Below, piece by piece: positions 22,494 through 52,430 of a stretch of 64,000 nt of DNA. The stretch's first letter is position 1; each line of letters opens with the position of its first letter. The stretch is taken from contig JAZOLE010000129.1 of the NCBI GenBank assembly GCA_045652835.1, positions 933 to 64,932 on the forward strand. Direction: 5' to 3'. The notes under the pieces are model-generated. The model was given only the letters and a program-made list of their open reading frames with translations. It was not told the origin of the DNA and did not search any database. The DNA is from Eubacteriales bacterium. GTDB lineage: Bacteria; Bacillota; Clostridia; Oscillospirales; CAG-272. Position numbers and translations under genes: made by a program.

Positions 22494-22517
22494 GTAGGGG
22501 CGATGCACGAATCGCCC
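22494..22517 (+). repeat. GTAG-headed REP-like hairpin
   Basis: GTAG-GGGCGAT-gcacga-ATCGCCC. Confidence 0.6.
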
Positions 22518-50279: not shown

Positions 50280-51002
50280 TCAGCCCTCGTAAGCCGCGTG
50301 ATCGCAAATCAGTGTCACGTCAGCGTGCAGATTCAGGAAGGATGCGGGGCAAGAGGTGGTCACAAGTCCCTGCAGCATAGCCGAAACAGCCTCATGCTTG
50401 CCCTTGCCGTTTGCCAAAATGATGATCTTCTTGGCGGACAGGATAGTACCCATGCCCATAGTCAGCGCCAGCGTAGGAACTTCGTCAGCACTTGCAAAGA
50501 AGCGCGCGTTAGCATCCACGGTATCAGCGGTCAGGCTGGTCACGTGGGTTGCAGGGTGCAGAGACTCTGCAGGCTCGTTGAACGCGATGTGGCCGTTTCT
50601 GCCAATACCCAGAATCTGAATATCCGCGCCGCCCAAAGAGCGCACGAATGCTTCATATCTTGCAGCCTCGGCTGCTGCGTCCTCCGCGCTGCCGTTTGGC
50701 ACGTAGGTGTTTGCCTTATCCACGTTGATGTGGTCAAACAGCTTGGTATTCATGAAATAGCGGTAGCTCTGCTCGTTCTCGGGCGAGATGGGATAGTATT
50801 CATCCAAATTCACGGTGGTTACACCGGAAAAATCCAGCTCACCGCGCTGGTACTTGGCAATCAGCTCGGCATAAAGGCCCTCGGGGGTAGATCCCGTAGC
50901 AAGACCCAGCACGCAAGACGGCTTTGCCTTGACAACCTCAGCCACCATATCCGCACCTACGCGCGACATTTCTTGATAATCATTGCAACAAATAATTCTC
51001 AT
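50280..51002 (-). CDS. nagB: glucosamine-6-phosphate deaminase
   Basis: LGLATGSTPEGLY...NLDEY...GIGRNGHIAFNEP. AGGAG RBS before ATG at 51002. Confidence 0.9.
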   Translation of the reverse strand: MRIICCNDYQEMSRVGADMVAEVVKAKPSCVLGLATGSTPEGLYAELIAKYQRGELDFSGVTTVNLDEYYPISPENEQSYRYFMNTKLFDHINVDKANTYVPNGSAEDAAAEAARYEAFVRSLGGADIQILGIGRNGHIAFNEPAESLHPATHVTSLTADTVDANARFFASADEVPTLALTMGMGTILSAKKIIILANGKGKHEAVSAMLQGLVTTSCPASFLNLHADVTLICDHAAYEG

Positions 51003-51029
51003 ATCAATTCTCCTTATCAATGTTTCGGC

Positions 51030-52268
51030 TTACCACTGATCGCTCTCGTCCTCGGGAATGACCTCTTTGACGGCAGCAATGGCGCACTCGATCATGCTGT
51101 CGTCCGGCTCAAGCACGGTAATGTGCTGCAGCCAAACGCCGGGCAGCGAGATCAGGCGGGTGATGATGGTATCATATCTGCCTGCGAGCTTGAGCAGCTC
51201 GTAGCCAATGCCCATAACCAAGGGCAGCAATACTAAGGATATGCCGGTACGTACCAGAGTGGGAAGCACGCTATGAATGGGGGTGAGCACGTTTTTCATG
51301 GTGTCGCCGAAAATAGCAACAAAGGTCGGCTCAATAAAGAACGAAACAAACACGTTGACAAGCACCATCAAGATCAGGAAAGAGGTGCCGCAGCGAGGAT
51401 GGAATCTTTTCTGCTTGCGCACGTTCTCAACGGTCAGGGGCAGTCCTGCCTCGTAACAGAAGATGGTCTTGTGCTCTGCACCGTGATACTGGAAGGTGCG
51501 GCGGATCTCCTTCATCAGCGAAACCGCAGCCATGTAGCCGACTACAATGACGATCTTGAGCAGACCCTCGATCAAAGAACGGATAAACGATTCAAGTGCC
51601 ACGTCCTCGGGTTTCAGCGAGGGCACGAGTCCGACCAGCAGATCATACAGCGCGGTGGGCACAAACTTGAACAGCAAAATGGCAAGACCCAAGCCAAGCA
51701 CAACACCCAGCACCATGACAAGCGTGGTAGTCAGCGACGCGCTGTCAGCCTTTTTCTCTTTCTTTTCGGGAGCGGTGGGTGTGGGAGATTCGGTTTCACG
51801 GGCGGATATAGAATCCGCCCCTACAGGCACCTCGGTTACGGGCGCTTCGGTTTCGCAGACGGATATAGACTCCGCCTCTACGGATTCGGTATCAACGGCG
51901 GATATAGACTCCACCGCTACGGGCTCGCCCTTCTTTGCAGCCTTCTTTGCTGCCTTGGCAGCCTTTTTGGCTTCTTTTTCGCGGCGCATCTCCTCCTCTG
52001 CCTCTTCAAGACCCGAAATCTCGGCAGAGCGCATCAGGCACTTATATCCCTGAATCATGGACATAGCAAAGTTATACACACCACGTACCACGGGAATCTT
52101 GGTGATCACAGGCGTTTTGGTGCTGTTGGCAGAAACCTCCAGCACGATCTCCCCATCGGGATTGCGTACCGCCATGGCGGTCTTTTTAGGACCTCGCATC
52201 ATAATGCCTTCCATCAGCGCCTGACCGCCGATAGAAGTCTTTTTGCAAGGACATTTATCTTTTTTCAT
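51030..52268 (-). CDS. DUF1385-family membrane protein with a ~100-aa low-complexity insert
   Basis: IGGQALMEGIMMRGP N-terminus and HGAEHK motif. Insert reads EEAEEEMRREKEAKKAAKAAKK...VGADSISARETES. Confidence 0.75.
   Translation of the reverse strand: MKKDKCPCKKTSIGGQALMEGIMMRGPKKTAMAVRNPDGEIVLEVSANSTKTPVITKIPVVRGVYNFAMSMIQGYKCLMRSAEISGLEEAEEEMRREKEAKKAAKAAKKAAKKGEPVAVESISAVDTESVEAESISVCETEAPVTEVPVGADSISARETESPTPTAPEKKEKKADSASLTTTLVMVLGVVLGLGLAILLFKFVPTALYDLLVGLVPSLKPEDVALESFIRSLIEGLLKIVIVVGYMAAVSLMKEIRRTFQYHGAEHKTIFCYEAGLPLTVENVRKQKRFHPRCGTSFLILMVLVNVFVSFFIEPTFVAIFGDTMKNVLTPIHSVLPTLVRTGISLVLLPLVMGIGYELLKLAGRYDTIITRLISLPGVWLQHITVLEPDDSMIECAIAAVKEVIPEDESDQW
51790..51925 (-). repeat. three tandem ~39-bp REP-like units lying in frame inside the DUF1385 CDS
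   Basis: Intact unit at 51800-51824 = reverse complement of GTAG-GGGCGGAT-tctat-ATCCGCCC. Eroded units at 51855-51881 and 51896-51920. Confidence 0.75.
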
Positions 52269-52363
52269 AGGAATTCCTCCTTACTTGCACAATATATCAC
52301 ACTACATGATAGCACACGATTATTAACATGATATGAATTATTTGCACCTTTTTCAAATTCAAC

Positions 52364-52392
52364 TTGACTTTCGGAAAAATATGGGATATAAT
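52364..52392 (+). promoter_or_regulatory. sigma-A promoter of yajC
   Basis: TTGACT-17-TATAAT. Confidence 0.65.
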
Positions 52393-52430
52393 AGGTACAT
52401 ATGTGAAAAACCAACAACGGAGGATAAACC

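Follow-up and report, generated by a model that had tools for sequence, protein, structure and literature searches.

How does a short, hairpin-forming repeat that is scattered through a bacterial genome come to lie in frame within the gene of a membrane protein, and is it merely tolerated there or kept for a use of its own? The question is raised by a DUF1385 (YqhQ-family) gene of an uncultured ruminant-gut Clostridia bacterium (Eubacteriales bacterium, assembly GCA_045652835.1), located in a stretch of 64,000 nucleotides, positions 933 to 64,932 of contig JAZOLE010000129.1, that we call the window. Within this gene are three related units attributable to a family of repetitive extragenic palindromic (REP) elements, each consisting of a GTAG head and a short stem-loop. 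By comparing the units with their relatives in the genome, with the same linker in other species and alleles, and with other genes that carry such repeats, we arrive at the reading, to which we give a probability of about 80%, that selfish hairpins are tolerated in disordered protein linkers, where they are then duplicated, eroded, and exchanged between alleles.

Three in-frame units of a dispersed GTAG repeat

The units lie in three direct repeats of 42 nt (51787-51828, 51844-51885 and 51883-51924) that are 79-83% identical to each other and start 57 and 39 nt apart; both distances are multiples of three, so that all three units share one reading frame. A preliminary description, made from the sequence alone, had presented them as a tandem array with a period of about 39 bp: three related in-frame units are indeed present in the coding sequence, but a strict 39-bp array is not. 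Tandem Repeats Finder called only an adjacent 12-nt repeat encoding KA and missed the three units, whose spacing is irregular and whose identity is about 80%. The positions and translations that the description gave for the units are correct, and unit 1 had rightly been taken for an intact hairpin: its inverted repeat GGGCGGAT/ATCCGCCC (51800-51820) is perfect over 8 bp around a 5-nt loop, and the element measures 25 nt with its GTAG head. As RNA it folds at -17.1 kcal/mol (z = -3.0), and units 2 and 3 fold at -12.0 and -14.9 kcal/mol (z = -2.7 for unit 3). The same description called the latter two eroded, which fits the four changes in 25 that each carries and overstates their decay, since seven of eight stem pairs are kept on the sense strand. 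GTAG stands immediately 5' of the stem in each unit, as it does in the consensus of the family. Between units 2 and 1 lies a native block, CCCGTAACCGAGG, found as the same 13 nt in the REP-free linkers of two related genomes (G012 and G007); REP sequence is thus present on both sides of original sequence.

A search of the whole assembly revealed about 25 exact copies of the family consensus GTAGGGGCGGATTCCATATCCGCCC over many contigs, and 33 copies within two mismatches, where a reversed control pattern had no match. Unit 1 agrees with this consensus at 24 of 25 positions, the sole mismatch being in the loop, and has an exact 25/25 twin at C121:7866-7890; this twin is the genome's only other copy with the loop TCTAT, and it is flanked differently, lacking the 3' flank GTGAAACCGAATC that follows unit 1. 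Sister subfamilies with other stems (GGGCGATC, GGGCGATT, GGGAGGAT and GGGAGCAT) are abundant in the genome. More generally, 242 perfect hairpins in the genome are directly preceded by GTAG, whereas seven control tetranucleotides in its place give counts of 29-87; 213 of the 242 start with GTAGGG. Roughly 20 of the ~213 lie inside genes verified by ORF (open reading frame) length and Pfam, and about 90% lie outside such verified genes. A search of positions 51000-52400 against Rfam gave no match at E <= 1. The window holds a second GTAG hairpin at 22494-22517 on the (+) strand, GTAGGGGCGATGCACGAATCGCCC, of the sister subfamily GGGCGAT(T/G).

The genome also encodes a REP-associated tyrosine transposase (RAYT) at C55:6868-7374 (-), which reaches 81.2 bits against a cut-off of 80 with NCBIfam NF047646, and 29.9 against 23 with PF01797 Y1_Tnp, and this gene holds two exact copies of the hairpin of unit 1's family in inverted orientation. 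With a stem-loop, a GTAG foot, dispersed copies, and a RAYT that carries the same hairpin, unit 1 has the defining features that sequence can test, and on these features is a GTAG-tagged REP.

Could the resemblance be a coincidence, produced by an acidic coding repeat of low complexity that is rich in GTAG through its Val-Glu codons? REP-free alleles of the linker are indeed rich in GTA GAA and GTA GAG codons and in short tandem repeats. Chance of this kind does not yield a 25/25 match to a copy on another contig and a 24/25 match to a consensus with some 25 exact copies, nor perfect hairpins of resident REP subfamilies at this same site in other species; and with no match to the 25-mer of unit 1 in 100 shuffles of the window, we regard this explanation as refuted, its probability being next to nil.

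A disordered linker in a DUF1385 protein

The host protein matches PF07136 (DUF1385) at E = 9e-78 (261.1 bits against a gathering cut-off of 22.1) over profile positions 1-226 of 227, and a homologue is labelled 'uncharacterized protein YqhQ' in one source. The match runs as one stretch over residues 58-405, which, for a profile of only 227 positions, implies a large insert within the protein. Open frames in relatives from other families of the order are about 316-369 aa long, in agreement with the usual length of about 300 aa that the preliminary description gave for DUF1385 proteins. A disrupted gene, which would have spoken against in-frame retention, is not what we find (Table 1).

In the AlphaFold2 model, residues 114-177 are coil without secondary structure at a pLDDT (predicted local distance difference test) below 50, flanked by a helix at residues 87-112 and a transmembrane helix at 179-214; the model is weak overall (mean pLDDT 59, 17 sequences) and was used for the disorder call only.

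Table 1. Features of the DUF1385 locus, in positions of the 64,000-nt window
Feature	Position	Strand	Remarks
DUF1385/YqhQ-family membrane protein gene	51030..52268	(-)	412 aa; open, intact ORF
Conserved Lys/Ala-rich helix, aa 87-112	51933..52010	(-)	near-invariant across genus; predicted helix; ancestral, not REP-derived
Predicted disordered acidic linker core, aa 114-177, hosting the REP units	51738..51929	(-)	AlphaFold2 and hypervariable block in alignment A1
REP unit 3, GTAGCGGTGGAGTCTATATCCGCCG, VAVESISA (aa 117-124)	51896..51920	(-)	4/25 core mismatches to unit 1
REP unit 2, GTAGAGGCGGAGTCTATATCCGTCT, VEAESISV (aa 130-137)	51857..51881	(-)	4/25 core mismatches to unit 1
Ancestral linker block APVTEV, coding strand CCCGTAACCGAGG	51825..51845	(-)	between units 2 and 1; same 13 nt in REP-free G012, G007
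REP unit 1, GTAGGGGCGGATTCTATATCCGCCC, VGADSISA (aa 149-156)	51800..51824	(-)	GTAG + perfect 8-bp stem + 5-nt loop
Unit 1 3' flank GTGAAACCGAATC	51787..51799	(-)	recurs behind units 2 and 3; also follows this REP in an allele from a different species

Recurrence of REPs in one linker across the genus

Orthologues from 14 congeners can be aligned across residues 1-412, and all 14 have in common the Lys/Ala-rich helix, an acidic stretch, and a KKEKK motif that directly precedes the first membrane helix. A long linker is also present in three further genera of the family, whose genomes contain none of the REP subfamilies searched. The insert of about 100 aa, where the preliminary description had located the units, is therefore ancestral and did not come in with the REPs; only a hypervariable acidic core of about 45 aa within it is REP-derived. 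In G022, which belongs to another genus, the linker of the DUF1385 orthologue (L018) consists of tandem repeats of another kind, each of about 15 aa (SEEPSKPDDGQKDDN), and contains no GTAG hairpin; the linker is thus repeat-prone even in the absence of REPs.

The nearest species (G012, G009 and G007) are 87-89% identical to the window protein over the whole aligned length, and their branches are very short in a tree from which the linker was left out. In the comparison with orthologues that had been proposed for dating the insertion, these species hold the same linker with (ETV/ETA)n repeats in place of the units, and no hairpin. Unit 1's REP family is nevertheless present elsewhere in two of these genomes, with 27 copies in G012 and 19 in G009. 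This bears on the possibility that the direction was the reverse, that is, that the dispersed hairpin family arose in this or another coding linker and spread outward. Coding linkers do contain many copies, and the RAYT gene itself has two; but the closest relatives have no units in the host gene and still carry the 19-27 copies elsewhere, the great bulk of copies in the window's genome are outside verified genes, and GTAG REPs with their RAYTs are an old and widespread system (PMC3733652, PMC6006769). We consider such an outward spread very improbable.

In other congeners, the same linker holds GTAG hairpins of different sequence, in every case on the coding strand and read as GTA|GGG: GTAGGGGCGAATCACGATTCGCCC twice in G008, GTAGGGGCGAATCACGATTCGCCC or a close variant once each in G010, G011, G015 and G013, GTAGGGGCGAATCAAGATTCGCCC in G003, and three units of GTAGGGTCGATTCACGAATCGACC or close variants in G004. 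Genomes of the genus hold 1-53 copies of these resident subfamilies, none of which was found in six searched genomes outside it. The gene tree requires several independent events. At a larger scale, at least one REP-type linker peptide (VGADSISA, VGAIHESP, VGANHDSP/VGANQDSP or VGASNSAEPNCESP were scored) is present in 61 of 110 genus-level homologue clusters from public metagenomes and missing from the other 49. Invasion of the linker, as first described, is thus supported, but not as a one-off: other subfamilies have struck the same site, and the event in the window's own lineage may have been a swap of allelic cassettes.

Allele P0023 has seven units of three subfamilies, of which six are perfect hairpins in DNA and one is a hairpin nested in another, and other alleles contain a tandemly amplified decay series, VGAIHESP -> VADHESP -> VADHEAP. 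A nested double hairpin, GTAGGGGCGAATAATTCGGCAGAGCCGAATAGCGAATCGCCC, with the in-frame peptide VGANNSAEPNSESP or VGASNSAEPNCESP, was also observed at L132:500-541 and in L004 and L131; it appears to be a second 8-bp hairpin inserted into the loop of a GGGCGA.../...TCGCCC REP.

An error of assembly, in which reads were joined through a repeat into a chimeric linker, has to be considered for a genome of this kind. The assembly (2.69 Mb, 51.7% G+C) is fragmented into 191 contigs, with REPs often close to contig ends. At this locus, though, both flanks belong to one gene, in frame, on a 65-kb contig, and REP-bearing cores occupy the same position in independent assemblies from other samples, so an artefact, too, is highly unlikely.

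Exchange of linker cores between alleles

The alleles P0016 and P0020 (L129 and L128) encode proteins that are identical outside the core and are about 98% identical in DNA there. Their 126-nt cores are wholly different, one being of the ETVET type and the other containing three perfect REPs, and both genes are 1209 nt long; this is a replacement and not a simple insertion. That the two cores have the same length could be a coincidence or could reflect a constraint on linker length. A second case involves the window itself: unit 1 with its GTGAAACCGAATC flank, rare TCTAT loop included, is 38/39 identical to a unit in P0107, a protein only 72% identical to the window's, and the right-hand boundary CCCACCGCTCCCG is common to these two alleles and missing from the sister species. 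Taken together, the swapped cores of P0016 and P0020 and the unit and flank shared with P0107 indicate that cassettes move between alleles by recombination. Whether the window's lineage acquired its units by fresh insertion or by import of a ready-made REP cassette stands at about even odds.

Other genes with in-frame REPs

In the same genome, REPs lie in frame between the Pfam domains of DnaX, MutL, PolA, a TerB_N/TerB_C protein, a DUF4838 lipoprotein, and a metallophosphoesterase lipoprotein, with orientation and frame constant. Two more ORFs for which Pfam was not run also carry them: one of 1129 aa that reads as DNA polymerase III alpha (probable DnaE), and one of 470 aa on contig C81. The linker peptides seen in these genes are VGAIHESP, VGSIHEST, VGADSISA and VGANHDSP (contigs C7, C19, C22, C142, C81, C67 and C160). 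All intragenic copies outside RAYT genes are sense-oriented. A REP hairpin can be read without a stop in four or five of its six frames, so that for seven Pfam-verified genes to use one and the same frame would be far from chance (at most ~(1/4)^7, by our inference). The frame used yields small, polar or acidic residues; the other sense frame and two of the three opposite-strand frames yield peptides rich in Arg, Trp, Phe or Tyr. One opposite-strand frame, ADMESAPT, looks benign and is seen in the RAYT gene only. Further REP-covering ORFs on C39, C43 and C85, a 974-aa ORF on C81, and the start of a ligase ORF on C139 were rejected as spurious (antisense or upstream read-through) and are not counted.

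Tandem REP arrays with periods of 39, 42 or 45 nt, all multiples of three, occur in the window's own genome (C25:246-360) and in two others (G003:C201:540-641 and G005:C161:2645-2758), and may be further translated arrays, the one on C25 lying near a contig end; another array, on G003:C418, has a period of 35 nt.

RAYT genes of the genus

RAYT genes across the genus (C55, C8:3542-3835, L116-L120 and L125) have their cognate REP built in frame into two loops that flank the HuH segment, with inverted orientation. The REP arms of six paralogues are exact or near-exact inverted copies of each other, while the stem varies among paralogues: four stem types were seen (GGGCGGAT, GGGCGATT, GGGAGGAT and GGACAG), plus a different hairpin, GTAGGGCGGGGGCTTGCTCCCGC, in G012. 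This strict pairing of the arms, and their covariation with the genome-wide subfamilies, may deserve a closer look. The two REPs of the RAYT gene enclose 120 nt that are not themselves dispersed in the manner of a REPIN (REP doublet forming a hairpin) spacer; only the hairpins are. Two longer Y1_Tnp proteins, of about 255-270 aa, are encoded at C171:752-1522 and C83:8464-9273. They score 63-66 bits on PF01797, possess a conserved extension at the C terminus, have no REP within 2.5 kb of their genes, and are of a different type from the REP-bearing RAYTs.

How the repeats may have entered, and why they stay

The following sequence of events would account for the locus. One or more REP copies would have entered the acidic, disordered segment that separates the soluble N-terminal part from the first membrane helix; they would have done so in the orientation read as GTA|GGG|GCG, a frame that gives V-G-A-D-S-I-S-A without a stop codon. 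Length and sequence of the linker would be barely constrained, so that such an insert could be tolerated, and we take it to be selectively near-neutral. A unit with its 3' flank would then have been duplicated locally, two of the copies diverging thereafter, and whole linker cores would have been swapped between alleles by homologous recombination through the conserved flanks. The genome's RAYT would be expected to recognise the GTAG hairpin. The core of what had first been proposed, an intergenic repeat that invaded a permissive loop and was kept in frame, is supported by the dispersed REP family, the RAYT, the hairpin-free linkers of the nearest species, and the predicted disorder.

The most serious competitor is that the hairpins are kept for a function, either in the mRNA, where, past the soluble domain and ahead of the first membrane helix, they could pause ribosomes, or could shield the message upstream, or in the DNA as sites for RAYT or gyrase, the peptide being the price. 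Units 2 and 3 speak for it. Relative to unit 1, the first stem pair is altered on both sides in each of them (in unit 2 from G-C to A-T, in unit 3 from G-C to C-G), and each has one C-to-T change that leaves a G.U wobble valid on the sense strand only; one change common to both opens the loop-closing pair. The stems thus keep seven of eight pairs as sense RNA and only six of eight as Watson-Crick DNA, and in a simulation three private substitutions left all remaining pairs intact about 4% of the time, for either unit. The sense orientation of every intragenic copy outside RAYT genes, and the six perfect hairpins out of seven units in P0023, point the same way. This retention is equally explained, however, if units 2 and 3 originated from different REP variants, and could also reflect the youth of the units; it is a lead, and no result. 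In addition, the nearest species and 49 of the 110 homologue clusters do without a REP-type linker peptide, the subfamily, copy number and position of REPs vary freely, and the decay from VGAIHESP to VADHEAP represents stem loss without gene loss. A functional hairpin is unlikely on this evidence.

The reading that we prefer, tolerance of selfish hairpins in disordered linkers followed by duplication, erosion and exchange, has several points against it. The stems of units 2 and 3 are better kept than random substitution would predict, which hints at room for selection on the hairpin, and the strict orientation bias leaves room for the same; since ADMESAPT looks equally benign, peptide chemistry alone does not explain that bias. 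Movement of the element by the genome's RAYT is inferred, and translation of the units is predicted from the DNA sequence. Among the alleles, no pair of empty and filled sites with a simple insertion was found, the one near-isogenic pair being an equal-length replacement, and the non-REP flank in common with the distant P0107 points to recombination, and not transposition, as the probable proximate event in this lineage. Lastly, the genome is a metagenome-assembled genome (MAG), estimated at 83% complete with 5% contamination.

A broader conjecture, which we find possible but doubtful, is that the linkers of DUF1385, DnaX, PolA and MutL are heritable landing pads rewritten by the REP/RAYT system, with REP arrays as a main raw material: entry in one benign frame, amplification in multiples of three, decay to Pro/Glu/Thr-rich repeats, cassette swaps between strains, and selection on the sense-strand hairpin. 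Such selection, if real, would account for the fixed orientation as well as for the stem retention in units 2 and 3.

Comparison with known systems

GTAG and CGTC REPs lying wholly inside the ORFs of known proteins, with the frame unbroken, were described by Di Nocera, De Gregorio and Rocco (2013, BMC Genomics 14:522, PMC3733652), with linkers and loops proposed as neutral sites. The same survey found an excess of intragenic REPs in DNA synthesis and repair genes, and listed GTAG REPs in Proteobacteria, Cyanobacteria, Chloroflexi and the Planctomycetes-Verrucomicrobia-Chlamydiae (PVC) group, with no Firmicutes (PMC3733652). The elements reported here are like those of that survey in forming a dispersed family with a GTAG head and a short GC-rich hairpin, and in being found in excess in replication and repair genes (DnaX, PolA, MutL and the probable DnaE), so that a pattern still unexplained is independently reproduced. 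They are unlike them in that the host belongs to the Clostridia, in that all copies in host genes are in direct orientation and one frame, and in that one linker has been struck repeatedly across a genus, with polymorphism at the level of alleles. Our search for literature on RAYTs or REPs in Firmicutes yielded nothing useful, and the present case extends in-frame GTAG REPs to gut Clostridia, a phylum outside the list of 2013. A practical consequence is that in MAGs, peptides encoded by REPs (VGADSISA and VGAIHESP, for example) will mislead both homology searches and the calling of genes.

A second parallel is with the Rickettsia palindromic elements (RPEs), which were reportedly described in protein-coding genes by Ogata et al. 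in 2000: both are selfish palindromes found in frame in unrelated, functional genes of many kinds, at sites that the protein structure permits. The classic RPE-1, at about 100-150 bp, is much longer, and RPEs are CGTC-tagged and belong to an alphaproteobacterial lineage; no dedicated transposase is known for them. The unit here, of 25 nt (about 39 with its flank), GTAG-tagged and from a Clostridia MAG, is not of the RPE family but works in an RPE-like way. RPE-4 and RPE-6 have been equated with CGTC REPs (PMC3733652).

In-frame REPs have also been found inside TnpA_REP/RAYT genes of subclass 2.4, one of them after the HuH strand (Quentin, Siguier, Chandler and Fichant 2018, PMC6006769). The RAYT genes here likewise carry their cognate hairpin in frame, one copy after the HuH strand; in contrast to a transposase gene, the host of the three units is a housekeeping membrane protein. 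Neither Nunvar 2010 nor Bertels 2017 mentions intragenic copies, and the latter scored extragenic flanks only. Like the bacterial interspersed mosaic elements (BIMEs) of E. coli, the arrays combine several REPs, of more than one subtype, at short regular spacing; but BIMEs are extragenic and alternate in orientation, whereas the arrays here are translated, direct, and spaced in multiples of three, and so are not BIMEs.

Intragenic REPs are thus already published, and the DUF1385 linker is a clean new example of selfish hairpin DNA becoming protein sequence, unusually rich in that one linker has been rewritten repeatedly across a genus and between near-identical strains. It offers a natural series, with at least four REP subfamilies in one linker of one genus, 0-7 units in an allele, and near-isogenic alleles that differ in the presence of REPs, which makes testable whether such repeats are neutral passengers or signals in mRNA or DNA, why they keep to one orientation and frame, and whether disordered linkers can be built from the debris of mobile elements.

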